A model generated the notes under the pieces. That model ran no database searches. It saw nothing but the letters and a program-made list of their open reading frames with translations, and was not told the origin of the DNA. Position numbers and translations under genes: made by a program. This document shows positions 8,352 to 33,628 of a stretch of 64,000 nucleotides of DNA, piece by piece. This DNA comes from Myxococcales bacterium (GTDB lineage: Bacteria > Myxococcota_A > Bradymonadia > REDH01), in contig JACKDJ010000014.1 in NCBI GenBank assembly GCA_020633625.1, forward strand, positions 18,035-82,034, read 5' to 3'. The stretch's first letter is position 1, and every line of letters starts with the position of its first letter.

Positions 8352-8413
8352 CCGGATCGATGGGCGCTTGACGCGGCCCTCGTGGCGATGCAGCTAGTGT
8401 CGCTCCAATCCAC

Positions 8414-9346
8414 GTGCAGAGGAACGAGATGGCCCGGGTGCTCTCCTGTCTGATGGCGATAGCGCTGCTCGCAGGCTGCGGCGGTGACGACGGCTACCCT
8501 CTCTACGACCCGACCTACTCCGGTGGCGGACAGACGACGTCTTGTGGCACCAACGCGCACGACGACGGCTTCGGAACCTGCGTGTGCGTCACCGGCTACG
8601 ACTGGTGTTCTGAGGACCTCTCGGACACCAACTGCTGCGCGCCCGCAGCGGAGACGTACGGCGAGATCATCGTCAGCTACCAGGGCGCAGACGACGAAGG
8701 CCTCCAGTCCATCGAGGACCGCCTGCGACCGCGCGGCCTGTTCGAAGCCGTCGCGAGCAGCTACACGAACGCGCTCGCCTTCCCCGAGGACCTGTACCTG
8801 ATGGGCGGCGAGTGCGGCTTCGTCAACGCGTTGTACACACGAGCGAACGGTAGCGCCGCCGTCCTGATGTGCTACGACCTGTACGCGTTCATCCTGAACA
8901 CGTTCGCGACGCGCTTCGAGGCGGCCGACGCCCAGATTCTCGCTGACCACACGTGGGCGTTCGTTCTCCTCCATGAGCTCGGGCACGCCCTGATCGACAT
9001 CTTCGACCTTCCGGTCGTAGCGGCCGAGGAGGACGCGGCGGACTCGTTCTCGGTCGTCAACCTGGTAGCAATGGGCCGCGCGGACGCCGCGGAGAGCGCC
9101 GCGGCCTTCTGGTTCCTGGCCGACGACCACCAGGATCTCCCCGAGGAGCTGGCCGACGAGCACTCGCTGAACCGGCAGCGCTTCTACGACATCCTCTGCC
9201 TCGTCTACGGCTCCGACCCGACGACATACGCGTCGATGGGCACGCAGTTCCCGGACATGGCCGGGCGGCTCCCGCGCTGCGAGGACGAGTGGGAGAGCGC
9301 GCGCACGAGTTGGAACGAGCTCCTGGCGCCACACGCCCGGCCATAG
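8414..9346 (+). CDS. Lipoprotein with an HExxH zinc-metallopeptidase-like motif (resembles DUF4344 'putative metallopeptidase'), encoded on the opposite strand inside the DISARM operon
   Basis: Lipoprotein signal MARVLSCLMAIALLAGCGG, motif LLHELGHALIDIF, normal codon bias. The antisense 340-aa ORF (8348..9370) is Arg-rich shadow. Convergent with drmMI (20-bp gap), divergent from drmA. Confidence 0.65.
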   Translation: MQRNEMARVLSCLMAIALLAGCGGDDGYPLYDPTYSGGGQTTSCGTNAHDDGFGTCVCVTGYDWCSEDLSDTNCCAPAAETYGEIIVSYQGADDEGLQSIEDRLRPRGLFEAVASSYTNALAFPEDLYLMGGECGFVNALYTRANGSAAVLMCYDLYAFILNTFATRFEAADAQILADHTWAFVLLHELGHALIDIFDLPVVAAEEDAADSFSVVNLVAMGRADAAESAAAFWFLADDHQDLPEELADEHSLNRQRFYDILCLVYGSDPTTYASMGTQFPDMAGRLPRCEDEWESARTSWNELLAPHARP

Positions 9347-9366
9347 TCGCCGATCCCGACGCTTGT

Positions 9367-12300: not shown

Positions 12301-13311
12301 ATCGGCGTGCGTCGCTGCATCCTCGTGCAGCTGTTCCCACAGCCCCAGGACGCCGAGGTGCGTGCCGTACAGGGGGGCATCGACCGGCATCAAGCCGCGA
12401 TCCTCGGCGTAGAGCAGAAAGACCAGGCGCAACAGCACGGTGAGCAGCGCCCGGTAGACGTGGTCGTCGTCGACCTCGAGTGCAGCGCTCAGCGCTCCGC
12501 CGTCGCCCCGCTCTTCGCACTCTTCGAAGCCGGCCAGCAGCAGCTCGATGGCCTCGAAGACCTGCCGAGCGAGCTCCGCGGTGACGTCGGCTTGCCGGCG
12601 TCGACTGTCGCGCAGGATCGCGTGGAGATCCCGATCGGGAGATGTGAAGACCGTCTGCGCAGAGAGGAGCGAGAGCAAGCCGCCGAAGATGTCTTGGCCG
12701 CCGGGTCCCGCCATGTCGCGGATGCCGAACGTGATCGCGCCCGAGGCCTCTCCGTGGGGGGCCACGACGAGACGGAGCACGTCACCGTTGAACAGCAGCC
12801 CCACCGGGACCTGAACGTGACGGAGCAGTCGCTCGAACTTCGCCGCCGGAGGGTAGTGCCACTCACCAGTGGTCGTCTCGGGGCGGTCCAGGTCGAGCCC
12901 GGAGGGGAGCTCCCACGCGAGCCACACGTACCCGCGGCCGGCGCCCGGCGACGCCGCCTCGCGCTCCAGCTCCGCGGTGTCGGGCGGCGCGACCCGGCGG
13001 AGCGCCCGCGTGGGACGCAGGTGCTGCCGCCCCTCGGGCACCCACAGCGACAGCTCGTCGGGGAGCACCCCGTCGAAGTCGAAGTCGCCCTCTTCGTAGC
13101 CGAGAATCTCGAGCAGCGGGGTCAGGCTTGGGAGCCGCTGGGCGCCGCTTTGGCCGTCGATGAGCGCAGACCGCAGCGCAGCGTGCTCCACGCGAGTCGC
13201 GGGACGGGCACACTGCGCGTCGACCAGGGCCGGGACCGAGACGACGAGCCCCTGAATCGGCTGGACCATGCCGAGCCAGGTTTCGTGAAACCGCCGGTCG
13301 ATGTGACTCAC
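9367..13311 (-). CDS. drmMI: DISARM DrmMI, large N6-adenine DNA methyltransferase
   Basis: Catalytic motif IV NPPF in ...FDCFVGNPPFGGKNNI..., AdoMet-binding region LYGVDKNRFAVDLAKLSMWLV, 1314 aa. Start overlaps the drmD stop by 4 bp. Confidence 0.8.
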   Translation of the reverse strand: MSHIDRRFHETWLGMVQPIQGLVVSVPALVDAQCARPATRVEHAALRSALIDGQSGAQRLPSLTPLLEILGYEEGDFDFDGVLPDELSLWVPEGRQHLRPTRALRRVAPPDTAELEREAASPGAGRGYVWLAWELPSGLDLDRPETTTGEWHYPPAAKFERLLRHVQVPVGLLFNGDVLRLVVAPHGEASGAITFGIRDMAGPGGQDIFGGLLSLLSAQTVFTSPDRDLHAILRDSRRRQADVTAELARQVFEAIELLLAGFEECEERGDGGALSAALEVDDDHVYRALLTVLLRLVFLLYAEDRGLMPVDAPLYGTHLGVLGLWEQLHEDAATHADTMHERFGAWPRLLALFRAVYHGMTFGDLRTPPRHGMLFDPELFPFLEGRRVGEPAPRLPEERATVRTPAIHDATVYGVLRRLLILDGQRLSYQALDVEQIGSVYERLMGYHVARLDAAAVCLRDYGVWVTVDALASVPSAQRVAWLREEAGLSSARATALAAAWGAAEDDAERLAALEAERRSGTKRREENRLVLQPGTERRRTSSHYTPRSLSSRMVRRALEPLFATMGPERTAESLLALKICDPAMGSGAFLVETCRVLADEVVAAWTREGVVEQVGDEHGDPVLHARRLVAQRCLYGVDKNRFAVDLAKLSMWLVTLAADQPFTFVDHALRHGDALVGLDINQIQALSWEGGKQQLIVQRELNEAIERALRLRREILDLAQSRSAVDAQRKVWLLRDADDAMERARLLADVVVGAFFAVERRQERKAALQNRRGEVLDWLASRESPTAQLHLWQAEARAQLTPLHWMLEFPEVFAGERPDPLASGRLGKAAWFDCFVGNPPFGGKNNIAASGGPHYIEWLQAVHPGAHGNADLSAHFFLRAAHYLGEHGTAGLIATNTIGQGDTRATGLQRIVGDGAVLYDAVDSMPWPGEAGVTISTVHLARGECRSHVGELRLNGLAVAALNSRLAPRPERPDPVALRANAGKSFQGSIVLGMGFTLTPEERDELGARDPRNAERIFPYIGGQEVNSSPTQDFERYVINFGQMTLEEAEQWPDLIGRVRELAKPERDRNNRDIYRRLWWQFGEKRVELYRALTKLSRCLVTARVSKHCMFSFQSTDRVFSEQLFVFPLSGTAEFAVLQSSVHVRWSWTLSSSMKSDLRYSATDCFENFPFPAPHTLAAGSEVEQAGDALYAARASYMVATDVGLTTTYNRLRDPACDDAEIVHLRELHEQMDRVVLAAYGWSDLEPPAFQDPASPGEADAKRRFEGEIIDRLFALNAARAAEEREAGAGTPAGPRGPVYGQPDLFGDDSDKS

Positions 13312-16300
13312 GACCGTGTCTCCGGCCAGAGGTAGAGGAGGCCGATCGGCTCGAGCCGGCGGGCTTGGACGTCGTAGAGGGCCCGCAGCTGGCTCGGCTC
13401 CTCGGAGCGCTCGCGCTCGATGTCACGCGACCGCTTCTCCATGTGGTCACGGTCGAGCTCGAGCTGTCGCCGCTGGATGCGGTCCTCGGGCGCAACGCTA
13501 TCGAAGTCGATCGTCAGCTGCGCGACCAGCCCGCGGAGGCGAGTCTGCTGTCTGTCGAGGAGTGCACGCAGATCGCTTGCCTCCTGCTCGCCCCGCGCGC
13601 GCAGCTTTACGACGGCGTCACGCGCGTTCGCCTCGGCCTCGTCGCGCACATGCGGCCAGAGGGTCGCGAAGTCCGCGCCGGCGACGGCCGCGACACGCGC
13701 ACACACGCTCGCGGGGGTCACGAGCCGATCGAACCGGTCGCGGTACGCGTCGTCGAACAGCGAGATCAGCTCGGCTTCGTGCGCAGGCGACACGGGCTCG
13801 AGGTGTGGCGGCTCGCGCGACTCGAGCCAGGGCGCGGCCACGCACACGAGCTCCTCGTGCAGACGCGAAGAGCCGCGGCCAAACAGCGACAGTCGCCCAA
13901 AAGCGAGTACGTGCGGCGTCGACAGTCGGGGTACGCGGGCGACCGCTACCCTGTGGAGCTCATCACCGGCCCAGCCGTGCGCCAGAAAGCGCGACAGTAC
14001 CCGTTGCGCGAGCGGGTGTGCGAGGTGAAGCTGGACCACATCCGCCCGCAGCCGACCGGCCGGCTCGAAGCTGACGGGCAGTGGCGCTCGCTTTCGGTGC
14101 TCCCACAGAGGCTCATCGCGACCACGAGGGGGGCGCGCAGAGTCGAGGGTCGCCTGCCAACCGTTTGGAAACTGCGGGAGCTGCCAGAGTCCGTCGCCGA
14201 GCGAGGCGAGGGGCGAGGTCCCGAGGGGCCTCTGGAGTGCGACGTTCATCCCGGTCTCGATCACCTTGTGAAAGAGGCCGGCGTCGTGGCCCAGCTGGCG
14301 TCGCGATCGGTCGAGCGTTCGGGCGGCGAGGTCGAGGTCTCGGCCCAGCGCAGCGGCGGCCCGCTGCGTCTCTAGCTCGGACGAGACGGCGCCGCGCCGC
14401 GCGCGCGCGCGAGCGTCTATCTCTTCGAGCCGGCCGATGGACGACTCGCGGATCCCGTCTGCGAGCTCGGCGGCGATGTCGTCCATGATCACTGCGCCGA
14501 GCGAGCCGAGCTCGCGCTGGATCACGTCGACCTTTCGGACGAGCGCGGCGAGCACGCGGTCCTCGGCACGCTGCGGGTAGACGAAGTAGTGACAGAACAC
14601 CTCTGCCGCGGGCTGAAGCGCCCGGTCGATGCGGCCGTTCCGCTGCTCCATCCGAGCGGGATTCCAGGGGATGTCGAAGTGGAACAGGGTCGCGCAGGCG
14701 CCCTGCAGGTTCACGCCCTCGCGCGCGGCGTCCGTACAGAGGAGGATTCGCAGGGGGCTCTCGGATGGCGCCGAATTGAACGCGCGCTGGACCTTGTCGC
14801 GGGCGTCGTCCGACATGCCGCCGTGAAAGACGCCGATGCGCTGGTCGGCGTCGGCGGTGTGAGCGACGGCACCCGAGAGCTGGGTTCGAAGGTAGCGGAG
14901 CGTGTCGCCGTACTCGGTGAACACGAGCAGCCGAGTCTCCGACCACGTCGCGTCTGCTCCACAACCGGCGTCGAGCGCGACCGCGGGGCACTGGTGCCGG
15001 CGGATCCAGTCGAACAGGAGCCGTAGCTTCGCGTCAGGCCTGCTCCGCAGGCGGTCGGCGGCGGCCACGAGCTCTTTGAGCAGCTCTGCGGGCACCGTCG
15101 TCGGGTCCAGCCCCATGCTCGCGCTCGCCGCTTCGTCGGCCTCCTCACGGTCGAGCGCGTCGTCGGACTGCCCGTACGCTTCGAGATCGAGATCGAGCGA
15201 GGCTTGGGCGAGGCCCGAGCTGGACTGTGCCGGTCGGTCCTCGAGCGACTCCCGACGCAGGGCTCTCGCGTGCGCCGCGAGCGTTCGAGCGAAGGCCTCG
15301 ACGGACGACAGGAGGCGCTTCTGAAGGTTCACGAAGACCAGGCGCGCGCGGCCGCTGGTTGGCTCGACAGCCTGGCTGTAGGTGCGGAGGAGGGCCGCGA
15401 GCGTGAGCTCGTCGCCCTCGACTCCGCCGAGCTCGACCTCCGTTGCGGAGTCGCCGTCGATAGTGGTCGCGGCTCGCCAGCCGGTGGGATCGTGGCGCAG
15501 CCGATGCTCGACGATCCGACGCTGCGGGAACTCCTCGCCCAGCTTGCGCAGGTCTTCCTTGAGCCGCCGAACCATCACAGGCTCGAGCTGGCGGGCATCG
15601 TCGACTGGCACACCGCGAGTGAAGCGCTGCGGATCCATGATCTCGAGCAGAGCGGAGAAGCTGTTCGAGTGTCCGTTGTGCGGTGTCGCGGAGAGAAAGA
15701 GCCGGTTCTCGAACTTGGGTGCGACCTCGCGCACGACGCCTGTGAGCTGGCTGTCGACTGCGTACTCCGACGCGGTGCTCGGCGCCGCGTGGTGCGCCTC
15801 GTCGAGGATCAGCAGGCTCCGGGCCCGGCGTTCGCCGAGCTGTTGGAGCAGGGGGTCGCGGTGCTCGGGCCGCCTCAGCATCGGGTAAGAGACGATGAAC
15901 CGGGAGTGCGTGGACCACGGGTTCACCGCGAAGCCGCGCTCCTTTCGCCGCTCCGAGACGAACGCGCGGGTGTAGATCTCGAAGCGCTGTCCGAACCGTC
16001 GCTCGAGCTCGTCGCGCCACTGGAGGGTGACCGACGCTGGGCAGACCACCAGCGTGAAGTCGACGCGCTGGCGGAGCGTGAGCTCCTGGAGCACGAGCCC
16101 CGCCTCGATCGTCTTCCCCAGCCCCACATCGTCGGCAATGAAGAGATTGGCTCGCGGCAGGCGCAGCGCCTTGGCGAGCGGGGTGAGCTGGTGGCTGAGC
16201 AGCTTGATCCCGGCACGGAACGGCGCCTGGAACAGGCCGGCGTCGGTAGCCGTGACCGCGTTCCACCGAAGCGCGTAGTACCAAGCCGCGAAGAGGCGAG

Positions 16301-16847
16301 GGTCATCGGTCCCTCTCACGGCGCCGATCCCGTCGGCGTGCTGACGAAGGACCCGCGCGCCAAGCTCGAGCTCCCAGAGGACCTCGAGGGGCCGGCCCTG
16401 GTCGTCATCGTCGAGGCACGTCAGCGAGACCCGGGTCATGTCGTCGCCTGCGGCGCCGGCCTCCACGTCCACGACGAGGTACTGTCGTTGTCGGCACACG
16501 ACGAGGTCGCCGGGTTGCGGCAGCCCGTTGTCGGGGACGGCGGGCGCTGCCCGAAGGCGGGCGAGGTCGGCGTCCAAGTCGGCCGCCGCGAGGATCCGCT
16601 CGACGAGGTCGACGAGGGCACGCCCGCTGTCGGGCAGGCCATGCGCGCGGCACGCGGCGCGGAGCTCGTCGCGCGTGAGCTCGTGCAAGACCTCGTACAT
16701 CTGCCCGCGCACGTCGTGCGCGAACCGCCGCGCCTGCTCGGCCTTCGCGAGGGAGCTGGGCACGACGGCGCCGAACTCGCGCGCCACCTCTGCGATGCGA
16801 GCTTGAGTCAGCGTCTCGACGACGGTCTGTACGGTAGGCGCGAGCAT
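13308..16847 (-). CDS. drmD: DISARM DrmD, SNF2-family helicase
   Basis: SNF2 N-terminal motifs LLSHQLTPL...LFIADDVGLGKTIEAGLVLQEL...LVVCPASVTLQWRDEL, DExH box LLILDEAHHA, helicase-C domain. Start taken at MLAPTVQTV... (ATG 16847). The further upstream ORF-track extension is Arg/Pro-rich and implausible. Confidence 0.85.
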   Translation of the reverse strand: MLAPTVQTVVETLTQARIAEVAREFGAVVPSSLAKAEQARRFAHDVRGQMYEVLHELTRDELRAACRAHGLPDSGRALVDLVERILAAADLDADLARLRAAPAVPDNGLPQPGDLVVCRQRQYLVVDVEAGAAGDDMTRVSLTCLDDDDQGRPLEVLWELELGARVLRQHADGIGAVRGTDDPRLFAAWYYALRWNAVTATDAGLFQAPFRAGIKLLSHQLTPLAKALRLPRANLFIADDVGLGKTIEAGLVLQELTLRQRVDFTLVVCPASVTLQWRDELERRFGQRFEIYTRAFVSERRKERGFAVNPWSTHSRFIVSYPMLRRPEHRDPLLQQLGERRARSLLILDEAHHAAPSTASEYAVDSQLTGVVREVAPKFENRLFLSATPHNGHSNSFSALLEIMDPQRFTRGVPVDDARQLEPVMVRRLKEDLRKLGEEFPQRRIVEHRLRHDPTGWRAATTIDGDSATEVELGGVEGDELTLAALLRTYSQAVEPTSGRARLVFVNLQKRLLSSVEAFARTLAAHARALRRESLEDRPAQSSSGLAQASLDLDLEAYGQSDDALDREEADEAASASMGLDPTTVPAELLKELVAAADRLRSRPDAKLRLLFDWIRRHQCPAVALDAGCGADATWSETRLLVFTEYGDTLRYLRTQLSGAVAHTADADQRIGVFHGGMSDDARDKVQRAFNSAPSESPLRILLCTDAAREGVNLQGACATLFHFDIPWNPARMEQRNGRIDRALQPAAEVFCHYFVYPQRAEDRVLAALVRKVDVIQRELGSLGAVIMDDIAAELADGIRESSIGRLEEIDARARARRGAVSSELETQRAAAALGRDLDLAARTLDRSRRQLGHDAGLFHKVIETGMNVALQRPLGTSPLASLGDGLWQLPQFPNGWQATLDSARPPRGRDEPLWEHRKRAPLPVSFEPAGRLRADVVQLHLAHPLAQRVLSRFLAHGWAGDELHRVAVARVPRLSTPHVLAFGRLSLFGRGSSRLHEELVCVAAPWLESREPPHLEPVSPAHEAELISLFDDAYRDRFDRLVTPASVCARVAAVAGADFATLWPHVRDEAEANARDAVVKLRARGEQEASDLRALLDRQQTRLRGLVAQLTIDFDSVAPEDRIQRRQLELDRDHMEKRSRDIERERSEEPSQLRALYDVQARRLEPIGLLYLWPETRS

Positions 16848-17239
16848 GGGCGGCCCCGACGTAGGCGAGTGCGTGGTTATCTCGCGGTGGCGGGCTGAAC
16901 TCAAGGGGTGGGCGCTCGCGGGGGGCGTGGGTGAGCCGCCCCAACCCAGGCAAATTGCTCCTCGCGAGCGCGCCCACGCGTGCGCGTGCACGCGTGCGCG
17001 AGCATAGTAGCCCACCGGCGACTGCCGGCGGTCCGCAGCGCCCGCGGTGCGTGCGCGGCGAGGGCGACGGCTCAAGTCAGCGCCAACACCGGGCCCGCGC
17101 CACGCACGCAAGGGCGCCCGAGAGGTGCGGCCGCGGGCGTCGCGGGGGCCTGGTCCGGGCCGGCACACCGCCACGGATCGTCGCGAAAAAGCGACACACT
17201 CGATCAAGAGTCACTTGCGCCGGTCTCCGCGGTCGGGTA

Positions 17240-17400
17240 GGGTCCCCGTACCGCTCGTACGGCCGTAGTCGCGTGCGCGCGACCGAACTTAAGAGTTATA
17301 CGGCTTTCGGTTTATTTTTTAGCCATCGTGTATTCGGTTTCCGCCTTCGCGGAATTCGCATGACAGTTTAGCGAAAGCGCGTTCGGGTCTTCATCCCGTT
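17240..17400 (-). promoter_or_regulatory. AT-rich (~50% GC) putative promoter region for the DISARM operon
   Basis: Sharp GC drop (…cttaagagttatacggctttcggtttattttttagccatcgtgtattcgg…) in a ~70% GC genome, in the large non-coding gap 16848-18139 between divergent drmD and the DUF262 gene. No promoter motifs were verified. Confidence 0.3.
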
Positions 17401-17458
17401 GCGCCTAACGTACTCTCGTCTTGTCGAATCGCCGACCGCATGTTCGCCGCATTCGAGC

Positions 17459-17925
17459 GCGCGCTTTGCAGAATCTGCGGACGCGCGCTTTGCAGAATTG
17501 CTAGCCCGCAGCTTGCGAATCCGCTGAGCGCAGCTTTGCAGAGCTGCGATGCGAATCTTGCAGAATCTCTAGTTCGCGTTTCCCGAATCCGCTGAGCGCA
17601 GCTTTGCAGAGCCGCTGACGCGCACTTTGCGGAATCTCTAGTTCGCGTTTTACGAATCCGCTGAGCGTAGCTTTGCAGAGCTGCTGATGCGCACTTTGCG
17701 GAATCTCTAGCCCGCGTTTCGCGAATCCGCTGAGCGCAGCTTTGCAGAGCTGCTGACGCGCACTTTGCGGAATCTCTAGCCCGCGTTTTGCGAACCCGCT
17801 GAACGCAGCTTGGCAGAGCTGCCGATGCGTACTTTGCGGAATCTCTAGCCCGCGTTTTACGAATCCGCTGAGCGCAGCTTGGTAGAGCCGCCGATGGGCG
17901 TTCCGCACGCTCGCGAATCCGCGCA
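17459..17925. repeat. Degenerate tandem array of about 7 copies of a 69-bp unit, non-coding
   Basis: Unit (gcg)cactttgcggaatctctagcccgcgttttgcgaatccgctgagcgcagctttgcagagctgctgac recurs at 17551, 17621, 17690, 17759 and 17828, with more degenerate copies from ~17459. Each unit contains a ~34-bp sub-repeat (…cgcactttgcggaatc… / …cgcagctttgcagagc…). There are no unique spacers, so this is not CRISPR. Overlapping ORF calls (17391..17987, 17501..17926) are low-complexity artefacts. Confidence 0.8.
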
Positions 17926-18139
17926 AAGTTTTTGGTTCGCGTCGCCTGCTCGTTGGTCGCGGTCAACTCGCGTTTGTCATCGTACACGCGGACGGGTCTT
18001 CCACAAGCTCACCGCGCCGCACCGTGGCGCACAGCGTAAGCACTCAGACAAACACGGAGGACTCCGATGCACCCGGACTAGCACATTCTGCCAGAACCTT
18101 CTTTGGCGCCCAACACACACTCCCACCAACGAGTTTTCG

Positions 18140-19174
18140 ATGAAGACTTCTAGTGCAAGCTTCTCCGTCGCCGCTGTCCTCGACTTCATCAACAACAAGA
18201 CCCTCGACCGTGCCCCGGAGTTCCAGCGGGGCGAGGTCTGGCGCACGGCCCAAAAGGCTGCCTTCGTCGACTCGCTCCTGCGCGGCTACCCCGTCCCCGG
18301 CCTCATCTTCGCTGATGACCCGAGTGAGAACAGCGACAGCGAGTGGGTCGTGGTCGACGGGCGGCAGCGCCTGCGGGCGCTGCACGACTACGTCCTCGGC
18401 GCGTTTGCGCTTCCCGAGGCGACACAGCTTCGGGCGCCCCAGTCAGTTCGGACGGCGTCGGCCGATTGGCTCGGCCGTCGCTACGACCAGTTGGCGGCCG
18501 CGGACCAAGAGCGACTGCTCGGCTACGAGCTCGCCGTCACGGTGATGTCCGGTGCGAGCTGGGACGAGGTCCGAGACGCGTTCATCCGCCACCAGGGCGG
18601 CACTCCGCTCGCGCCACAGCAGGTCCGAGACGCCTTCCCCGGCGACGTCGCGGAGCTTGTTCGGCGCGTCGGGGGCTGGCGCATGGCGACTCCGGAGTAC
18701 GACATGGTGCGGCTGTGTCAGAGCGGGGGCGCCGGCAGCTCAGACGAGACGTCAGGGGCAGACCCATACGTCAGGAACCGAGAGTTCTGCGCTCGCCTCC
18801 TCGCCGCGTTCTTCTCCCGGCGGACTCAGCCGGACGTCTTCCCGAGGCTCAACGCGACGGCGATCGACAACCTCTATCACACTCACGTCGTGATCGAGGA
18901 CGCGGATGCCGACGCCTTCTGCTCGACGCTAGCGAAGGCCCGCGAGGCGGTCCTGCGTTGCTACGACCCCCGGAGGCAGATCGTTCGGGTGAACGTCGCC
19001 TGCACGTTCCTCTTCGCCGTCGACCACCCCGACACGCCGGTCGAGCGCATGGCCGCGCGGCTCGCCGAGATTGACGCTCGCCGGCTATCCACCAAGGGGC
19101 TGAGCCTCCAAAACGCGGCTCGACTCGAGAACTACTATCGCAACTTCGCGCGCCAGATGCGTGCACGTCGGTAG
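18140..19174 (+). CDS. DUF262 (ParB-like / GmrSD N-terminal type) domain protein with an uncharacterised C-terminal half
   Basis: N-terminal region FINNKTLDRAPEFQRGEVWRTAQKAAFVDSLLRGYPVPGLIF...WVVVDGRQRLRAL carries the DUF262 QR...DGQQR signature. Start taken at MKTSS (18140); upstream ORF-track residues overlap the repeat array. Local GC is lower than the surroundings. Confidence 0.6.
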   Translation: MKTSSASFSVAAVLDFINNKTLDRAPEFQRGEVWRTAQKAAFVDSLLRGYPVPGLIFADDPSENSDSEWVVVDGRQRLRALHDYVLGAFALPEATQLRAPQSVRTASADWLGRRYDQLAAADQERLLGYELAVTVMSGASWDEVRDAFIRHQGGTPLAPQQVRDAFPGDVAELVRRVGGWRMATPEYDMVRLCQSGGAGSSDETSGADPYVRNREFCARLLAAFFSRRTQPDVFPRLNATAIDNLYHTHVVIEDADADAFCSTLAKAREAVLRCYDPRRQIVRVNVACTFLFAVDHPDTPVERMAARLAEIDARRLSTKGLSLQNAARLENYYRNFARQMRARR

Positions 19175-19243
19175 CCGCAAGCCTCGACACCCCGGGAGGC
19201 CGCGGACGCGGCCTCGAACCTTCCACACAGCGAGGAGAGAGAA

Positions 19244-19666
19244 GTGAACAACAACACGATTGTACGCGCGTCCAAGCTTGACCCCGGCAGTGTGCGGTTG
19301 CTTAACCCGGGTGTGCTCAGGGGGCAGTCCCGTGATGGGAACGAGGCAACCTGGCCCTCCGATCCTCACTTCGCGTTGGTGCTGCTCGTGAGCGGTACGG
19401 TACCTGAGCGAGATGTGTGCTTGCTCTGGCTCACGAGCAAACCTGGCCCGGGCCGTCGACAGGTCCCGGAGTCTGTGAAGGACGGACACGTCGGGACGTG
19501 GAACTCGAAGCCGACCTACATCTACGCCGTGGCGCAACGGTTCTGGGTGGACGAGGCGACGCTTCGCGCGGCGGACAAGACCATCGGCGACCTTAGGGTT
19601 GAGAACGGCTGGTTGTCGCAGCTACAGGCCGACATCGCGTACGAGGAGTATCGGGTCTCGGCGTAG
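19244..19666 (+). CDS. Hypothetical 140-aa protein (no recognisable domain), GTG start with a strong GAGGAGAGAGAA Shine-Dalgarno
   Basis: Open frame with good RBS spacing, 70 bp downstream of the DUF262 gene. About 60% GC. Followed immediately by a perfect 15-bp stem hairpin. Confidence 0.45.
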   Translation: MNNNTIVRASKLDPGSVRLLNPGVLRGQSRDGNEATWPSDPHFALVLLVSGTVPERDVCLLWLTSKPGPGRRQVPESVKDGHVGTWNSKPTYIYAVAQRFWVDEATLRAADKTIGDLRVENGWLSQLQADIAYEEYRVSA

Positions 19667-19669
19667 AGC

Positions 19670-19725
19670 CTCGGCACGGCCGCGATTCGAGGTGACCAGC
19701 TGGCTGCGACCGCGGCCGTGCCGAG
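19670..19725 (+). terminator. Perfect 15-bp inverted repeat (ctcggcacggccgcg … cgcggccgtgccgag), 26-nt loop, 4 nt after the stop of the 140-aa ORF
   Basis: Read directly from the sequence. GC-rich stem with no T-tract. Could be an intrinsic terminator, an RNA-stability hairpin or a protein-binding palindrome. Confidence 0.35.
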
Positions 19726-19884
19726 CCCACAGCCTCGTCCCGCGTCGGAATCGCCCCAGCGTGACCTGTCCACTGTTCGCGCTCGGTTCCGGCGCGGCGC
19801 GCGAGTCCGGAGTGCGACGCTGCAGTGTCACAGCCGGACCGACCCGTGGTATGCCTGTCGGCGACGCCTCTACCCCGCCGAACC

Positions 19885-20907
19885 ATGACCATCACCGCCA
19901 TCACGCTAGAGAAGTTCACGGCGTTCGAGTCGCTGGAGTTCGAGCCCTCGACAGGGGTCAACGTTCTGATCGGTGCGAACGGTACCGGGAAGACGCATCT
20001 GATGAAGGTCGCGTACGCCGCGTGCGACATCACCCGGACGCGCGAAGGATTCGGCGAGAAGCTGGTTGGCTCGTTCCTCCCTTCGGGTGGCGCCCTCGGG
20101 CGCTTGGTGCGGCGTCGCGGAACGAGCTCGGCCGCGAGAGTCGTCGTGCGCAGAGGCGACCTCGCCCTCAGGGCGGAGTTCTCGAGTCACGCCAAGGACC
20201 CAAGTCACGCGAATGTGAAAGTGACGGCGCCGCGCTGGAGCGAGTCACCGGTCGAAAGCGTCTTCGTTCCCGTCAAGGAGATGCTTGCGAACGCCCCCGG
20301 CTTCCGATCGCTCTACGCGCGGCGCGAGATTCACTTCGAGTCCGTCTACGCCGACATCATCGATCGCGCGTACCTACCCCTGCTCCGGGGTCCACGGGAC
20401 GACACCCACCGCGGCCTCCTGTCCACACTGCAGGGCGCGATGGACGGCAAGGTGGTGGTCAAGAACGAGGAGTTCTTCCTGAAGAACGCTCAGGGCGAGC
20501 TCGAGTTCACGCTGCTCGCGGAGGGCCTTCGCAAGCTGGGGCTGCTCTGGCTCCTGATCCAGAACGGGACGCTCGCCGGCGGCTCGGTGCTCTTCTGGGA
20601 TGAGCCGGAGACGAACCTCAACCCGCAGCTCTTCAGTGTCGTCGTGGAGCTGCTCCTTGGGCTCCAGCGATTGGGCGTTCAGGTCTTCGTAACCACACAC
20701 GACTACGGAATGCTCAAGGAGTTCGAGCTCGCCGCGCGCCCAGGTGACCACATCCGCTACCACGCCTGTTTCCGGCCAGAAGGCACCGCGGCCGTCGAGA
20801 TCGAGACATCCGACACTCCGTCCAACCTCGCGAACAGCCCTATCGCCGCCGCGATGACCTCCCTCTATGACCGCGAAGTGCGTCGGTCGCTCGGGAGACG
20901 CGCATGA
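19885..20907 (+). CDS. Minimal ABC-type / AAA_21-like ATPase (~340 aa)
   Basis: Walker A LIGANGTGKTHLMK, ABC-signature-like LAEGLRKLGLLWLL, Walker B/D-loop VLFWDEPETNLNP, H-loop FVTTHD. Start at MTITAITLEKF. Its stop overlaps the next gene's ATG (ATGA). Confidence 0.65.
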   Translation: MTITAITLEKFTAFESLEFEPSTGVNVLIGANGTGKTHLMKVAYAACDITRTREGFGEKLVGSFLPSGGALGRLVRRRGTSSAARVVVRRGDLALRAEFSSHAKDPSHANVKVTAPRWSESPVESVFVPVKEMLANAPGFRSLYARREIHFESVYADIIDRAYLPLLRGPRDDTHRGLLSTLQGAMDGKVVVKNEEFFLKNAQGELEFTLLAEGLRKLGLLWLLIQNGTLAGGSVLFWDEPETNLNPQLFSVVVELLLGLQRLGVQVFVTTHDYGMLKEFELAARPGDHIRYHACFRPEGTAAVEIETSDTPSNLANSPIAAAMTSLYDREVRRSLGRRA

Positions 20908-21413
20908 CGGTCATCGTCGAAGCCGAGCTCGAGTTCACATTCGACCCGAGTTGGGCGACCGAGCATCTCGACTCGCCAGGGCGGGTATGGCCCAAGGGAA
21001 TCTCGCCAGTCGACTTCGTCGTCGACCGAGGCGACGACCTTCTCTTGATCGAGGTGAAGGACCCCTCGCACTCGCGCGCAACGCCCGCCGAGCGCACCCG
21101 ATTCATCCGAGAGATGACGTCGAGAGAGCTCACTCACGAGCGGCTCGCGCCCAAGGCACGGACCAGCTGGTCTTACCTCTACCTCATGGATCGGACCGAG
21201 AAGCCGCTTGTGTTCGTCTTCCTTGTCGGGACCGACGCACTGACACTGGAGCCTGTGCTCCTGCAATCACTGAACGACCGGCTCCGGGCGCGACTTGCGC
21301 AAGAGACCGAGCACCCTTGGGCACGCCCGTATGTCGTCTCGTCTGTCGTCCTCCCCGCCCTCGACGCCGGTCGGTACATTCCTGGGCTCAGCGTGACACG
21401 AAGACGCGGGTAG
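20904..21413 (+). CDS. Small (169-aa) predicted PD-(D/E)xK-fold nuclease-like protein, translationally coupled to the ATPase
   Basis: N-terminal acidic helix (EAELEF), then ...PVDFVVDRGDDLLLIEVKD..., i.e. D-(x11)-E-V-K spacing typical of the restriction-endonuclease-like fold. 4-bp ATGA overlap with the ATPase gene. The motif assignment was made by eye. Confidence 0.5.
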   Translation: MTVIVEAELEFTFDPSWATEHLDSPGRVWPKGISPVDFVVDRGDDLLLIEVKDPSHSRATPAERTRFIREMTSRELTHERLAPKARTSWSYLYLMDRTEKPLVFVFLVGTDALTLEPVLLQSLNDRLRARLAQETEHPWARPYVVSSVVLPALDAGRYIPGLSVTRRRG

Positions 21414-21428
21414 CCACTGCCCCCCACC

Positions 21429-22184
21429 TCACACCACCGCGCCACCCACCGCCCGCGGATCGAACGTCTCCAGCTCGCGCGTCAGCAGCTCGCCGGTCGC
21501 TTCGGGCTCCAACAGCCCGCGCTTCTGGAACGCTGGGATGACCTTGGACTCGACCGTCTCTCGCATCGCTTGCCAGTGCTCGCGTCGGTCGATCAGCCCA
21601 AAGGCGAGGGCGCTCGGCTCGTAACGGGGCTCTTCGTCGCGGAGCTTGGCTCGCAGGTAGATGCGGAGCCACCAGCAGAGGCGGGGGCGGACCCAGGCTC
21701 GCACGGGCTCGAGTCCATACAGCTCGCTCAGCGCGTCGAGGACGTCGAACGCGAAGACGCGGTGCGTGGACTCGTCGCGCAGGATCACCTCGCAGACGTC
21801 GCGCGCCATCGGGTCTGTCGCGTTCTCTAGGCGCATACGAAACACCGTCAGCGCGACCGACTCTTCGCACGCGAGCTCGCCGGCCGCCGTGATCAGCCGC
21901 AGGTGCATCGGGGCTTCGGGGTCGTCGGCGTGGATCAGCTGGCGCGGGACGAGCGACACGGGCGTCGGCGCTCCGCCGGCGTGCAGGTACAGCTCGTGGC
22001 AGATTGTCGCGTGCCGGACCTCGTCGCTCACCACACGGGTAGCGCGGACCAAGAGGTCTGGGCTCAGGCCGACCACACACATCCAGTGCGTCATCTCCGC
22101 GACCAAGCTCGCCGCGGTGTACTCCGTGCGCGACTGTCGGAGCCACGCCCGCTGAACCACATCCACGGTGTCTCCCGCGTTCAA
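21429..22184 (-). CDS. Ferritin-like / di-iron-carboxylate-type domain protein (251 aa)
   Basis: Paired ExxH motifs (DEVRHATICHE, ...EESVALTVF..., DESTHRVFAFD) and predicted helical character. Start overlaps the stop of the upstream lipoprotein gene by 4 bp. Confidence 0.45.
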   Translation of the reverse strand: MNAGDTVDVVQRAWLRQSRTEYTAASLVAEMTHWMCVVGLSPDLLVRATRVVSDEVRHATICHELYLHAGGAPTPVSLVPRQLIHADDPEAPMHLRLITAAGELACEESVALTVFRMRLENATDPMARDVCEVILRDESTHRVFAFDVLDALSELYGLEPVRAWVRPRLCWWLRIYLRAKLRDEEPRYEPSALAFGLIDRREHWQAMRETVESKVIPAFQKRGLLEPEATGELLTRELETFDPRAVGGAVV

Positions 22185-22843
22185 GTCGGTTGGCGGTCGA
22201 CCTCGAACGGACCGCGGCGCCCACGGTAGGAGCGAAGCCCCTGGCTAGGGCCCTCGGGCGCACACCACGCGAACTGGCTCCAGTCGAGTCCCGGCCCCAA
22301 CATCGCCTCGCCGCTGCCCTCGCCCGAGCCCTCGCCGCCCTCGCCCGAGCCCTCGCCGCTGCCCTCGCCCGAGCCCTCGCCGCCCTCGCCCGAGCCCTCG
22401 CCGCTACCCTCGCCCGAGCCCTCGCCGCTACCCTCGCCCGAGCCCTCGCCCGAGCCCTCGCCGCTGCCCTCTGGAACATCCGGCAGCGCATCGCCGTCTA
22501 CCGAGTCGGGCTCGTCGCTATACCATCCGGAGTTGTCCGAAAGTTCGGGCTCTTCGACGTCGGGATCCTCGGTGACCTCGGCATCGGCATCAACGTCCGG
22601 ATCGTCGCTGTACCATCCGGAGTTGTCGCAGCACTGGGGGAGGTCGCCGTCGGGTTCGTCCGAGACCTCGACGTCGAGGTCGTCGGTGTACCACCCAGAG
22701 TTGTCCGAGAAGCCGGACTCGTCCCTGTAGCCCGTGTCGGGTTCGGTGTCTGCGACGCGATCGTTGCAGCTCGCGACGAGCGCGACGGGCAGCGTCAACG
22801 CGACGACAAATCGCGGACCTCTGAAGTTCGATGCCATAGCCAC
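22181..22843 (-). CDS. Low-complexity secreted lipoprotein with DNSGWYSD(D/E)PD repeats and a long (GEGS)n linker
   Basis: Lipobox MASNFRGPRFVVALTLPVALVASCND, three DNSGWY repeats and a 70-aa GEGSGEGS tract (24/30-nt periodic DNA at ~22240-22500). Co-oriented and overlapping with the ferritin-like gene. Confidence 0.55.
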   Translation of the reverse strand: MAMASNFRGPRFVVALTLPVALVASCNDRVADTEPDTGYRDESGFSDNSGWYTDDLDVEVSDEPDGDLPQCCDNSGWYSDDPDVDADAEVTEDPDVEEPELSDNSGWYSDEPDSVDGDALPDVPEGSGEGSGEGSGEGSGEGSGEGSGEGSGEGGEGSGEGSGEGSGEGGEGSGEGSGEAMLGPGLDWSQFAWCAPEGPSQGLRSYRGRRGPFEVDRQPT

Positions 22844-23016: not shown

Positions 23017-26000
23017 CTACCCGCGCCGGCGACGGCGCACGGCCACCAGGGCGAGAGCGGTCAGCAACAGGGGCAGGCCGCTCGGCGTGCTCCCCGGCGC
23101 CGACGCGCACCCGTTGCGCTTCGGACCCGAGCCACCGTCGCTGCCGCCGTCGAGCGGGGTCACGCCGCCGTCGTCGCCGCCGGTGTCGAAGCCCGAGATG
23201 CCGTCGTCGCCGGCATCGCCGCCCGCGTCGGAGCCCGCGTCGGAGCCGCCGTCAGCCCCGGCGTCGCTGCCGGCGTCGGAGCCCGTGTCACCGCCGGCGT
23301 CGCCGCCCGCGTCGCCAGCATCGCCGCCCGCGTCGGAGCCCGTGTCACCGCCGACATCGCCGCCTGCATCGCCGCCGACGTCGTCGCCGGCGTCTGCACC
23401 CACATCGTCACCGGCGTCTCCGCCCGCGTCGCCACCGACGTCGTCGCCGACCTCTGTGACGAGGACCTCGTAGACGGCCGTGGGGGCGCCCTCGGGCGAG
23501 GTCGCGACGTTTGCTGCGACCGAGAGGTCCGTCGCCTCGATGTAGTAGTAGGCGAAGCCCGCGACGAGGTCGTCGCCCGGGATCGTCAGGCGGTACTCGT
23601 CGGCGCCGGTGTGATCCATCACGTCGTCGAGCCACACGCCCGAGTCGGCGATCTGAACATACAGGCGCACCTCATCGATGCCGCTGGCGTCGGTGACCGT
23701 CGCGATGACGTCGATCGACGTGCCCGCCGTCACCTCGGTGACCGGCGTGTGCGTGATCACCGGCGGCACGAGATCGGGGCCCGTGATCGGGTCGACGACG
23801 AGGATCTCGGGGCGCAGCTCGCCGCCGGCAGGCTCGAGGGTCACGTTGCCGATCGTGTCGCTCGCCTCGACGAAGTACGCCAGCTCGCCGGCCACGACGG
23901 CGCTGCCGGGCAGCGTCGCCGAGTAGCGGCCGCCTACCAATGTCATCGGCGTCTCGGTCCACGTCTCGTCTGTCGCGCCCGACGTGCTCAGGGTCACCGT
24001 GCCGACTCCCGATGGGTCGGTGACGCCGGCCGTGAACGTGATCGGGGCGCCGGCCGTGTAGGGGCCTACCGGCACATCGAGCTCGACCGTCGGCCCCGTC
24101 GTGTCGGGGTCGACCACGACGACCGCGTACGGGACGGCCGGGGCCGTCGCCGGCGCGCGCGCCGTGTTCGAAGGCGACGCGCCGTCGACCGCCTGCAGGT
24201 AGTACTGCACACCCGGCGCCGCCACCGCGCGCGCGGGGATGGTCGCCGACCAGGTATCACCGGCCGGCGTCATCGCGAGGGTCGTGTACGAGGTCTCGCC
24301 GACCACGCGGTAGTAGACCGTCGCCGAGGCGATCCCCGACGCGTCGGTGACCGTCGCGTCGAGGGTCAGCGGGCGGCCGGAGACGAGGGTCGCGGTCGTC
24401 GGCGTGTGGACGATCGTCGGCGCCGTCGTGTCGGGCGTCGTGACCACGAACATCGACGGAGTGGCCGGCGCGCTCGCCGGCGCCACGGCCGAGTTTGGCG
24501 TCGCCGCCCGGTCGGTAGCCGACACGTAGTAGTCGACGCCGGGCGCCACGACGACCGTGCCCGGAAGCGTCGCCGACCAAACATCGCCCGCTGCCGTCAT
24601 CGCGACCGACAGCCACGCCGACGAGCCGGTGGCGCGGAAGTAGAGCGTCGCGGACGCGACGCCCGACGAGTCCGTGATGCGCGCGAGGACCGTCGTCGGC
24701 GTACCGGCGACCACGGGGCTCGCGACCGGCGTGAGCGAGATCGTCGGCGGCGCGAGGTCGGTCGTCACCGCCGTGAACGTGTGGAACGTGGCCGGCGCGC
24801 CAGCCGGGTTGACCGCGGTGTTTGGCGCGGGCGCCGAGTCTGTGGCCGAGATGTAGTAGTTCACGCCGGGCGCCGCGACCGACGAGCCCGGGATCGAGGC
24901 CGTGTACGTCTCGCCCGACCGAGCCATCGCGGTGCTGAGCCACGTCGCGTCGCCAGAGCGACGGAAGTAGAGCGTCACGTTCGCGATGCCCGTCGCGTCT
25001 GTCACGGTCGCCGAGACGGCCACCGCGGCACCGACGGGCTGGCCGTCGGCGATCGGCGTGTGTGTGATCGTCGGGGCCGTCGTGTCGGGTACGAACACCT
25101 CGAACGAGTTGAACGACGCCGGCGCGTCGCTCGGGTCCACGGCGGTGTTCGACGGGGACGCCCCGTCGGTCGCCGACACGTAGTAGTCGACGCCCGGCAC
25201 CAGGATCACGGTGCCCGGAAGGGTCCCCGACCATGTGTCACCAGACGCCGACATCGCGACGGACAGCCAAGACGAGGTACCCGAGGCGCGGAAGTACAGC
25301 GTCGCGGACGCCACACCCGACGAGTCGGTGACGCGCGCAGACACCGTCGTCGCCGTGCCCGCCGCGATCGGGCCGCTGACGAGCGTCGTCGTGATCGACG
25401 GCGCCGCCACGTCGGCCGTGACGACCGTGAACGTGTGGAACGAAGTCGGCGCTCCGGCCGGGCTCGTCGCGATGTTTGCTGCCGGCGCCGTGTCGGTCGC
25501 CGAGATGTAGTAGCTGACGCCCGGCGCCGCGACCGACCCGCTCGGGATCGATGCCGAGTAGGCGCCACCGCTCCCGCTCATCGCCGTGCTGAGCCACGTC
25601 GCGTCGGTGGAGCGCTTGAAGTACAGCGTCACCGGGCCGACGCCCGTCGCGTCGGTGACCGTGGCGCTGACGGTCACCGCGGCTCCCGCCGGCTGACCGT
25701 TCGCGATCGGCGTGTGGACGATCGTCGGCGCCGTCGTGTCGGGAACGAACACGTCGAACGTATGGAACGACGTCGGTGCACCGGCGGGGTCGAGCGCCGT
25801 GTTCGACGGCGACGCCGCGTCGGTCGCGGACAGGTAGTAGTCGACGCCCGGCGCGACCACGGCCAGTGCCGGGATGCTGCCGCTGTATGCGCCGGCGAGC
25901 CCGCCGGTCATCGCGGCGGAGAGCCACGTCGTCGTGCCGCGGACCCGGAAGTACAGCGTGACGGCGCCGACGCCGCTCGCGTCGACGACGACCGCCGAGA

Positions 26001-29000
26001 CCGGCACCGCGGCGCCCGCGGCGCGTGCCGAGGTGATCGGCGTATGCGCGATCGCCGGTGGCGTCGTGTCGACCGGCGTCACGCCGACCGTGAAGCGATG
26101 CAGACTCGTCGGTGCGCCCGAAGGCGACGTCGCGACGTTCGCGCCCGGCGCCGAGTCGACGGCCTCGAGGTAGTACTCGACGCCCGGCTCGGTCACGGCG
26201 ACGCTCGGCAGGATCGCGTTGTATTCGCCCGCGAGCGACGCGGTCAGCGGCAACGACGCGAAGGCGCCGCTGCTGCCCTGCTGACGGTAGCGCATCGTGA
26301 CAGAGGCCACGCCGCTCGCGTCGGTGACGACGGCGGTGACAGCGACCGAGACGCCAGGGTCACGCCCGTTCGCGATCGGCGTGTGTGTGATACTCGGGCC
26401 CGTCGTGTCGGGGACCGTGACCGTCCGCGACCGCCACGCGAGGGGGGCCGTCGAGGGGTCGGCCGACGCGTTGGCGAGCAGGTCCGTCGCGGCGATGTAG
26501 TAGTCGAAGCCCGGCGCAGCGACCGGTCCGACGCTCGCCGTGTAGTGGCCGCCGGCCACGCTCGGCGTCACCAACGTCCACGCGGTCGTCCCGCTCGTGC
26601 GCCAGTAGACCTGCACCTCTTCGACGCCGCTCGGGTCGGTCACGTCGGCCTCGATCGAGACGTTCGAACCGGCGTAGATCGGGAGCGCGGGCGCCACGTG
26701 TGTGATGCTCGGCCCCGCGAGGTCGGTCGGCTCGACCGTGAACCGGGCCGGCGTCGCCGGCGCCGAGGCCGGCGCGACGGCGACGTTCCCGGCGGGCGCG
26801 CTGTCGACGGCGCGGACGTAGTAGTCGACGCCCGCCGTCGTGACCGACGCGCCCGGGATCGTCGCGCGCCACGCGCCGCCCGACAGCGACATCGCGACGT
26901 TCTGGTACGAGGCGGCGCCGGTCACGCGGTAGTAGAGCGCCGCGCTGGCGACCCCGGTCAGGTCGGTGATCTCGGCAGACACCGCGACGGCCTGGCCCTC
27001 GGGCTGACCGTTGGCGACGGTCGCGAGGACGATCGTCGGCGGCGTGAGATCGGGCGGCGGCGTCACGGTGAACGAGACCGTCGCGCTGTCGGCGGCGTTG
27101 CCGACGCCGTCGGTCGCGTGCGCGTAGACCTGCACTCCAGGCTCGACGACCGCCGCGCCCGGGATCGTCCCTGTGTACGGACCGGAGCCCGACAGCGTGA
27201 GCGTCGTCCACGTCGTCGCGCCGGTCACGCGGTAGTAGCCCGCGACCGTCGAGACACCGCTCCCCGCGTCGGTCGCGGTGACGGTGACGGCCACCGGGGT
27301 CCCGACGATCTGCGGGCTCGAGATCGCGTTGACGGACACCGTCGGCGCCGTCGTGTCGGGGTACTGGATGACGATGACGCGCGGCGCCGAGCTGCCCTCG
27401 GGCGGGTAGGTCCCGACGTTGCCGGCGGCGTCTTGCGCCTGGATGTAGTAGCTGACCGTCGCCGTGCCAGACGGGACGAACAGCCACGACCCGACGGCGC
27501 TCCAGGTGTCCCCGGTGCCGTGCGTCATCGTGACGGCGTTGTATGTGCCGCTGTCGAACGAGACATACACGGTCGCCGTCGTCACACCGACGGCGTCGGT
27601 GATCGTCGCCGTCCACGTCACGTCGGAGCCCGCGGGCGACGACGTGATCGGCGTGTGCACGATCGCGGGCGCGGTCGTGTCTGGCGCGGGGACCGTGAAC
27701 GAGAACGGCGCGCCGGCGCCACCGACGGGCAGCGTCGCGACGTTCGCGGCGGGCGCCGTGTCGACCGCCGTCAGGTAGTACTCGACCCCCGGGTCGAGCA
27801 CAGAGGCGCCCGGGATCGAGCCCGTCCACGTCGAGGCGGCGCCGGCCGTGAGCGTAAGGTCCGTCCACGAGACCGTGCCGGTGCGGCGGTAGTGGAGCTG
27901 CACCGAGGCGACGCCGGTGGCATCGACGGCGACGACGGAGATCGGGACCGCCGCCAGCCGCGTCTGCGGACTGCTGACCTGCGTGTGCACGAGGCTCGGC
28001 GCCGTCGTGTCGGGGGCGGTCACGGTGAAGTGGTTCGGCGTCGTCGGCGCCGTCGTCGGCGACACGGCGCTGTTCGAGGCGCCGTCCGTCGCGCGGATGT
28101 AGTAGTCCACACCCGCGACGGTCACGGAGCCGGCGGGGATCGACGCGCTCCACACATCTCCGGTGCCGAGTGTCATGCTCGCGGTCGTGTAGGTCGCCGC
28201 GCCGGTGACGCGGTAGAGCAGGTCGACCGTGAGCGAGCTCGCGTCGACGACCACCGCCTGAATCGGGACGGCGACGCCGGCCGGCTGGCCGTTCGCGACG
28301 GGCGTGTGCGCGATCGACGGCGCCGTCGTGTCTGTGGTCGTGACCGTGAAGTTGTATGGCGTCGTCGGCGCCGTCGTCGGCGCACGCGACTCGTTGCCGG
28401 GCGTGTCGGTCGCGCGGATGTAGTAGTACATCGACGGCGCGGCGACCGAGAACGCCGGGATGTCGGCCTGGTACACGCCGCCGCCGATGTGCGTCATGTC
28501 GATCGTCGAGAACACGGGGAACGTGCTCGGGCGGTACTTGAGCTGCACGACACCGATCCCCGACGGATCCGACACTGTGGCGGTGACGGTCACCGCCACG
28601 CCGGGCGGCTTGCCGTTTGCGATCGGTGTGTGCGTGATCGTCGGTCCGGTCGAGTCGACGGCGGTGACGGTGAAGCTGTACGGCGTGGTCGGTGCCGTAG
28701 CCGGGTCGACCGCCTCGTTCGGCGCGGCGTCGCGCGCGGCGATGTAGTACTCGACGCCGGGCGGCAAGATGCCGGCGCCGGGGATCGTCGCGGTCCACGT
28801 GTTCCCGCTGCTGCGCGTCATGGCGAGCGACGTGTAGGCGGCGCCGCTGCCGGCGGTGCGGTAGTGGACGTCGGCAGACGCCACCGAGCCGCCGGTGTCG
28901 ACGATGCCGGCGGTGATGATGATCGGCGTGCCCTGGAGCTGACCGTTCGCGATCGGCGTATGGACGATCACCGGCGCGACGGTGTCGCCGGAGCTGACCG

Positions 29001-33429: not shown

Positions 33430-33628
33430 GCAGAGACTCGACACGTAGGGGGATGGAGCACCCGGCGTCTTAGCCCGCTCTCGGGCCCGAATCAACGCGG
33501 GATTTGGGGGCCCGACGGCGGCTCCCGAGCGGCGACGCGCGCGTTGACGCCGAGCCCTGCGTCGCCCTAAGCCTACCGACCGACGCCGAGACAGTCGGCG
33601 CACTCGCTGCCCCGAGCCCCCGCGCCCC

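Follow-up and report, generated by a model that had tools for sequence, protein, structure and literature searches.

Cassettes that are embedded in Hma were described in 2024 by Payne, Hughes, Fineran and Jackson, who named nine 'Hma-embedded candidates' (HEC) and tested them in E. coli (bioRxiv 10.1101/2024.01.29.577857). One of these, HEC-02, consists of an ABC ATPase and a NERD-like PD-(D/E)xK protein with a (D/E/Q)xK motif, the NERD-like call having been made on structural grounds; it lowered plaquing in E. coli, for which both genes were needed, and was protective from its own plasmid, without Hma (bioRxiv 10.1101/2024.01.29.577857). The HEC-02 tested came from Dickeya dianthicola NCPPB 3534 (WP_024108366.1 and WP_024108365.1), in which the two genes, at 965326-966354 and 964820-965329, share a 4-nucleotide (nt) overlap and the partner counts 169 amino acids (aa; bioRxiv 10.1101/2024.01.29.577857 supplement). 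Here we analyse a stretch of 64,000 nt from a Myxococcales bacterium (contig JACKDJ010000014.1, positions 18,035 to 82,034), hereafter called the window, in which a first-pass annotation had pointed to an ATPase gene coupled to that of a small nuclease-like protein, possibly as an undescribed variant of known defence modules. We find the pair to be already known in kind: it is an ordinary new copy of HEC-02 and not a new system. Our overall reading, to which we give a probability of roughly 0.85, is that the pair belongs to HEC-02 and serves against phages as an ATPase with a nuclease.

The gene pair and its assignment to HEC-02

The pair and its junction are located as follows:

19885..20907, plus strand: HEC-02A, 340-aa ABC ATPase; ATG start; PADLOC PDLC04213, Pfam AAA_21
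20904..21413, plus strand: HEC-02B, 169-aa PD-(D/E)xK-fold putative nuclease; ATG start; D37, E50-V-K52 and a conserved P83-K84-A-R86
20893..20907, plus strand: translational-coupling junction between A and B, a Shine-Dalgarno-like GGGAG followed by ATGA, read from the sequence

The start codon of B shares the ATGA at 20904-20907 with the stop codon of A, which gives the 4-nt overlap that had been noticed at first sight, and the Shine-Dalgarno-like GGGAG (20893-20897) lies 6 nt 5' of the B start. In a genome as rich in G+C (GC) as this one (70% GC), long open reading frames (ORFs) can occur by chance. The GC at third codon positions is 0.84 in A and 0.78 in B, versus about 0.46 at second positions. 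Because this codon-position pattern coincides with full-length profile matches, both ORFs are true genes and not chance ORFs. Database records of identical proteins come from a Myxococcales metagenome-assembled genome (MAG), where they are labelled 'AAA family ATPase' and 'hypothetical protein'. The pair was said to be lower in GC than average, and indeed reaches 64.5% versus 70.4% in the remaining window, with only 1.4% of segments of the same size having a GC as low.

The PADLOC model PDLC04213 (HEC-02A) matches the ATPase with an expectation value (E) of 1.3e-116, over protein residues 1-337 and profile positions 1-335 of 337. Likewise, PDLC04220 (HEC-02B) matches the small protein with E 6.4e-43, residues 1-166 on positions 1-166 of 172, and eight further HEC-02B sub-models also match it (seven at E <= 5e-5, one at 0.03). 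Since these profile searches place the pair in an already named system, the very outcome that the first-pass annotation had set down as speaking against novelty, the undescribed variant has to be abandoned. Besides the full-length A and B matches, the genes are direct neighbours on one strand with A ahead of B, A has an ABC fold with intact motifs, and B is PD-(D/E)xK/NERD-like. Judged from the sequences, the pair almost certainly belongs to the HEC-02 family.

The comparison with the Dickeya representative is in line with this. Both have the A-then-B order, an ABC ATPase of ~340 aa, a partner of exactly 169 aa, a 4-nt overlap and full-length PADLOC matches. Unlike Dickeya HEC-02, the window pair falls in another sub-model (PDLC04213/PDLC04220), and unlike Hma-embedded HEC-02 it adjoins DISARM. 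The A proteins are 34% identical (E 5e-54). For B, the identity is 26% (BLASTP E 0.006), and a comparison by profile gives an hhalign probability of 94.7% (E 6e-8), with an N-terminal MT.I.E..L.FTF, a D..LIEVKD and an A-K-x-R as the aligned motifs.

For the ATPase, the full ABC/AAA_21 motif set claimed at the outset could be located in its entirety. It comprises a Walker A (G30-ANGTG-K36-T37), a signature-like motif (L210-LAEG-x-RK217, being LLAEGLRK in the window protein), a Walker B (V235-LFWDE240-PE, residues 235-242), a D-loop (T243-NLNP, residues 243-247) and an H-loop (T271-H272), all of which are invariant or near-invariant in an alignment of 44 homologues. AAA_21 (E 3.8e-21) is the sole Pfam family in this protein, and an NCBIfam search of the pair gave nothing beyond the Pfam result. 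Its AlphaFold (AF2) model, with a predicted local distance difference test score (pLDDT) of 84 and a predicted template modelling score (pTM) of 0.86, has as its top Foldseek matches Rad50 heads, PtuA (Septu, retron I-A) and SMC heads (E ~1e-12, template modelling (TM) score ~0.5-0.57), and a coiled-coil insertion is absent. A phmmer search of the PDB found merely P-loop/signature fragments (PtuA, FtsE, SMC5; E of at least 0.004), which indicates that no HEC-02 structure has been solved. Its model places HEC-02A among the soluble ABC ATPases with a structure of the Rad50/SMC/PtuA/OLD type. Other PADLOC profiles (AriA, AbiLi, NsnB, GajA and PtuA) match the ATPase partially and tens of orders of magnitude more weakly than HEC-02A does, and the matches of HEC-01A profiles are weak as well. 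As a separate observation, the PADLOC-DB model PDLC04146, labelled HEC-02B, matches the ATPase (E 4.5e-61, residues 5-289) and not the small protein, which looks like a database inconsistency or a variant with swapped gene naming.

No Pfam or NCBIfam family was found in the 169-aa protein, and a profile search of PDB sequences gave a chance match to Aca7 alone (E 0.45). In its predicted structure (pLDDT 95.3, pTM 0.91), D37 stands immediately before one strand and E50 and K52 within the next. As this placement is the canonical one for PD-(D/E)xK proteins, it confirms the restriction-endonuclease-like fold that had been suspected from the motif and put forward for a check by structure prediction. 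The motif itself had been given as D-x11-EVK; it does exist, with a spacing of x12 (D37-x12-E50-V-K52). In 30 homologues, D37, E50 and K52 are invariant, within the blocks V36-D37-F38, E50-(V)-K52-D53-P54 and P83-K84-(A)-R86. HEC-02B also matches Hjc resolvases and NucS. Neither TOPRIM nor HNH is present in the pair, and there is no match to PtuB or AriB, which agrees with the earlier impression of a nuclease of neither type. As modelled, HEC-02B is a small, stand-alone, NERD-like PD-(D/E)xK putative nuclease.

Homologous pairs and their neighbourhoods

To compare gene order, we scanned a single genome of each species and obtained 26 loci that span many phyla, among them Myxococcota, Spirochaetia, Latescibacterota, Acidobacteriota, Nitrospirota, Cyanobacteria and Pseudomonadota. 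Upstream DNA is available for 23 of these loci, and in each of the 23 the partner is directly preceded by an ATPase homologue, whether complete or degraded. At the A/B junction, which could be scored in 22 loci, the overlap is 4 nt in 14 and 1 nt in two, and most others have a gap of at most 14 nt. This conserved junction makes translational coupling a trait of the HEC-02 family, and the conserved A-then-B order together with the start/stop overlap suggests that A and B are made in stoichiometric amounts and form a physical complex. The notion of an autonomous, translationally coupled cassette is supported.

The HEC-02B family holds 674 representative clusters at E <= 1e-3 and 385 at 1e-10 (from 1.84 billion representatives), its members being nearly all stand-alone and of ~165-180 aa; the relatives of HEC-02B are 36-64% identical. 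The ATPase family is larger, with >4,200 matches at E <= 1e-10, the best 120 of which are at least 58% identical. Within the same loci, A is typically 45-72% and B 31-55% identical, so the ATPase is much better conserved than the nuclease. Going by these identities, the effector appears to have the higher rate of evolution and the putative sensor the lower, whereas the reverse is usually assumed for sensor-effector defence pairs. Homologues of the small protein are encoded by only two plasmids, and by none of the phage records. In three of the 26 loci the copies are degraded or frameshifted (L016 3863-4883, L026 1886-2903 and L028 9194-10314), with the HEC-02A homologue in two frames and, in L028, a B gene that is split as well. 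These split copies would be frameshifts or decaying copies, as is common among costly defence genes, or else assembly errors.

To describe the surroundings of these pairs, we picked ORFs crudely and considered the two nearest on each side, which shows that embedding in BREX exists, not that it is statistically enriched. The pair is located between BrxC and PglX PglZ in one locus (L025), is followed by BrxHI and PglZ in two (L008 and L016), follows PglXI in another (L013), and lies between brxC and pglX on the Methylomonas koyamae plasmid pLM6 (L029). The BREX-1 locus of pLM6 (NZ_CP023670.1 54733-71212) also carries a second insertion, a 'PDDEXK nuclease domain-containing protein', between pglX and pglZ. 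A survey of BREX (Nucleic Acids Research 2026) lists OLD-type ABC ATPases together with PD-(D/E)xK restriction endonucleases, HNH or PIN nucleases as embedded 'backup effectors', and credits the OLD-type ATPase dyads to earlier surveys of ABC-ATPase conflict systems (PMC12839542). The dyads with a PD-(D/E)xK restriction endonuclease in this survey, which is computational, can be likened by their description to HEC-02, as they have the same architecture and embedding. The cassette has been inserted repeatedly beside or inside BREX and DISARM loci and carries a signature of horizontal transfer; it has been transferred horizontally, often into other defence loci.

Could the pair instead serve in housekeeping, as a repair or recombination module with a RecF/Rad50-like ATPase and an Hjc/NucS-like nuclease, or be a toxin-antitoxin pair? 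In structure, the ATPase has Rad50 and SMC heads among its best matches, the nuclease matches Hjc and NucS, and Pfam labels AAA_21 as 'putative AbiEii toxin'. However, the patchy distribution across phyla, the low GC, the degraded copies in three of the 26 loci and the embedding in BREX do not suit such a role, the ATPase has no coiled coil, and a homologue has an experimental anti-phage phenotype, all of which leaves this explanation extremely improbable.

For HEC-02 as a functional anti-phage system in the window, several points must be weighed on the negative side. The anti-phage phenotype is known from the Dickeya homologue alone, and by sequence the window pair would share it across no more than 34% (A) and 26% (B) identity. 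Active-site mutants, biochemistry or a structure of HEC-02 were found neither in the literature searched nor in the PDB, and a literature search for later names of HEC-02 or for mechanistic or structural work gave the 2024 preprint and survey papers alone. Pfam NERD (PF08378) gives no match to the window HEC-02B at E <= 1 and matches two of 30 relatives, at E of at least 0.067. Furthermore, many homologous pairs stand among housekeeping genes (sulfatases, riboflavin genes), so that enrichment in defence islands is partial. The neighbourhoods of homologues, which the first-pass annotation had put forward as a check, therefore give a divided answer, with pairs embedded in BREX on one side and pairs among housekeeping genes on the other. 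Such enrichment is likewise partial for most Hma-embedded candidates (bioRxiv 10.1101/2024.01.29.577857). Taking these points into account, we still consider it very probable that the copy in the window functions as an anti-phage ATPase-nuclease.

The defence island around the pair

The features that surround the pair in the window are the following:

2238..17207, minus strand: class 1 DISARM (DrmC, DrmB, DrmA, DrmMI, DrmD); PADLOC E 3e-54 down to 0
4875..8351, minus strand: drmA of DISARM
8414..9346, plus strand: DUF4344 putative metallopeptidase, 310 aa; Pfam E 1.7e-51, third-position GC 0.89
9367..13311, minus strand: drmMI of DISARM
17459..17888, divergent intergenic region between drmD and the DUF262 gene: 69-nt tandem repeat array, 6.2 copies with 87% matches
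18140..19174, plus strand: DUF262/GmrSD_N protein, 344 aa; Pfam 5.8e-16, best PADLOC match NsnA of Menshen (3.4e-27)
19244..19666, plus strand: orphan ORF of 140 aa (ORF140); third-position GC 0.80, absent from the first-pass annotation
19671..19724, plus strand: G+C-rich hairpin between the stop of the orphan ORF (19666) and HEC-02A, from RNA folding
22181..22843, minus strand: 220-aa protein with long (GEGS)n repeats, unrelated to the HEC-02 pair
23017..33717, minus strand: 3,566-aa protein with many repeated modules of ~90-100 aa and an acidic G/D-rich tail at its end, unrelated to the HEC-02 pair

As had been recognised early on, the pair is situated in a defence island, beside DISARM and a DUF262 gene. 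The class 1 DISARM is complete, with all five components matching PADLOC profiles. On the plus strand, which is read away from drmD, come in turn the repeat array, the DUF262 gene, ORF140, the hairpin and the HEC-02 pair, and the genes 3' of the pair are convergent and have no relation to defence. The repeat array has a local GC of 62% and matches no Rfam family; more broadly, Rfam gave no family over 17000-22500, and a promoter scan found no sigma-70-like site.

The hairpin upstream of the pair has a 14-bp G+C-rich core stem and a folding energy of -45.9 kcal/mol (z = -3.97), which none of 200 shuffled sequences equalled. It had been taken to set the pair apart from the upstream genes, and such a structure does exist and is a probable boundary of the cassette. 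It has no T-run and was not detected by a terminator scan, and that it acts as a terminator is something we can only infer.

Of the two upstream genes, ORF140 has a plausible coding signal and matches no Pfam or PADLOC family, and a search of 5.8 billion clusters returned only its self-match, with no homologue outside the source MAG. In the DUF262 protein only the N-terminal DUF262/GmrSD_N domain was detected, with no DUF1524/HNH C-terminal domain, and this protein is possibly a separate single-gene defence. Due to the NsnA match of the DUF262 protein, we also considered a Menshen-like composite, in which the pair, the DUF262 protein and ORF140 would form one unit of a DUF262 protein, an ABC ATPase and a third protein. 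The ATPase does match NsnB weakly (3.2e-10), and the four genes, all on one strand, fit into 3.3 kb and are alike in their low GC (64.4% over 17208-21413). Against this, the NsnB match covers residues 231-285 only, compared with a full-length HEC-02A match at 1e-116, NsnC gives no match, and the NsnA-like gene is located 711 nt upstream and encodes the N-terminal domain only; membership of Menshen was rejected on these grounds. Moreover, a strong hairpin and a gap of 218 nt separate the pair from the upstream genes, ORF140 is confined to the source MAG, and the Dickeya pair works alone. In the 26 related loci, no homologue of the DUF262 protein, of ORF140 or of the DISARM genes accompanies the pair, the sole matches to DISARM queries being two BrxHI helicases, which resemble DrmD in a generic SNF2 manner. 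A composite of this kind is thus very improbable.

A further explanation would be that the pair is an accessory of DISARM, or of BREX elsewhere, and works only with that system. The pair adjoins DISARM here, at least five loci have a pair embedded in BREX, and modules of this type have been termed a BREX 'backup effector layer' (PMC12839542). It is, however, encoded apart from the DISARM operon and on the other strand, with further genes in between, while many pairs have no defence neighbours at all and Dickeya HEC-02 is protective without Hma. We therefore regard a strict dependence on DISARM or BREX as improbable. As the housekeeping or toxin-antitoxin role, the Menshen-like unit and the accessory are each contradicted by conservation, by profile coverage or by the stand-alone activity of the Dickeya pair, all three are rejected in favour of an independent HEC-02 system.

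Within DISARM itself, the DUF4344 gene lies between drmMI and drmA in an orientation opposite to that of the operon. Such an orientation is unusual, since 96.7% of embedded genes reportedly point the same way as the system that flanks them. PADLOC gave only a weak match of its product to peptidase_U41 (2.6e-5). A 340-aa minus-strand ORF at 8348..9370 was rejected as a gene, being by its codon-position GC an antisense shadow of this plus-strand DUF4344 gene.

Proposed mode of action and related systems

How might HEC-02 act? If it works in the way of Septu PtuAB, PARIS AriAB and Gabija, a dimer or oligomer of HEC-02A with bound ATP would bind the nuclease, keep HEC-02B inactive and sense infection. 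It might respond to a phage protein, e.g. an anti-restriction factor, to an aberrant DNA structure or to the depletion of nucleotides. Such a cue would alter the state of the ATPase, upon which HEC-02B would be licensed or released to cut nucleic acid, of the phage or of the host, through its predicted D37/E50/K52 metal site. Either the phage DNA would then be destroyed, or the infection aborted, and beside DISARM the pair would form a second layer of defence. Resting as they do on likeness to other systems, we give these sensor-effector details somewhat better than even odds.

The HEC-02 subfamily in the window may also differ in function from that of Dickeya, since the nuclease is only 26% identical to Dickeya HEC-02B and carries an invariant P-K-A-R motif. 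It could have another trigger or another substrate, e.g. RNA, or it could be a dedicated back-up that fires once phage anti-restriction proteins have disabled the neighbouring DISARM, possibly together with the DUF262 protein. We consider such a divergence rather unlikely.

With the pair read as a HEC-02 system, the genes now recorded as 'AAA family ATPase' and 'hypothetical protein' can be named HEC-02A and HEC-02B, and the locus annotated as a defence island that combines class 1 DISARM, a DUF262 protein and HEC-02. The analysis adds an example from the Myxococcota and several BREX-embedded examples to the HEC-02 family. It brings no new kind of system, nor does it make a long-standing question newly testable. 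Given that no published HEC-02 mechanism was found in the sources searched, whatever biochemistry reveals about the pair would be mechanistically new. Furthermore, a defence ATPase-nuclease pair can be recognised from raw sequence, and its novelty needs to be checked against the PADLOC candidate families, beyond the classic named systems.

Among those classic systems, parallels had been drawn to OLD/PARIS, Septu and AbiL. These hold as analogues in ATPase-nuclease logic, and PARIS, Septu and AbiL are not the family to which the pair belongs. In Septu and retron I-A (PtuA-PtuB; PDB 8EEA, 8SUX, 9N69), an ABC ATPase is also followed by a small separate nuclease in the next gene, and PtuA is one of the best structural matches of the window ATPase (Foldseek E ~1e-12, TM ~0.55). 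However, PtuA is larger, the structure-based identity is 12-16%, and PtuB is HNH and not PD-(D/E)xK. Septu membership was rejected, as PtuA profiles cover only residues 1-43 of the ATPase, PtuB gives no match and the partner has a PD-(D/E)xK fold. PARIS (AriA-AriB) and Gabija/OLD follow the same logic of an ABC ATPase sensor with a nuclease effector, but the effector in AriB, GajA and OLD is a TOPRIM, which the window pair does not have. For PARIS the AriA match is partial (E 2.9e-20, residues 138-276) and far below that of HEC-02A, with no match to AriB, and for AbiL (an AbiLi ATPase with an RloB-like AbiLii) there is only an AbiLi match of E 3.9e-11 and none to AbiLii; both were rejected.

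The NERD domain (PF08378) belongs to the PD-(D/E)xK clan and has a D...ExK core as in HEC-02B. The window protein falls short of the gathering score of this Pfam family, and is therefore not counted as a member. HEC-01 (ATPase and TOPRIM) and HEC-03 (ATPase and PIN) are sister modules, with related ABC ATPases and interchangeable effectors (bioRxiv 10.1101/2024.01.29.577857), and it is in the fold of the effector that they differ from HEC-02.

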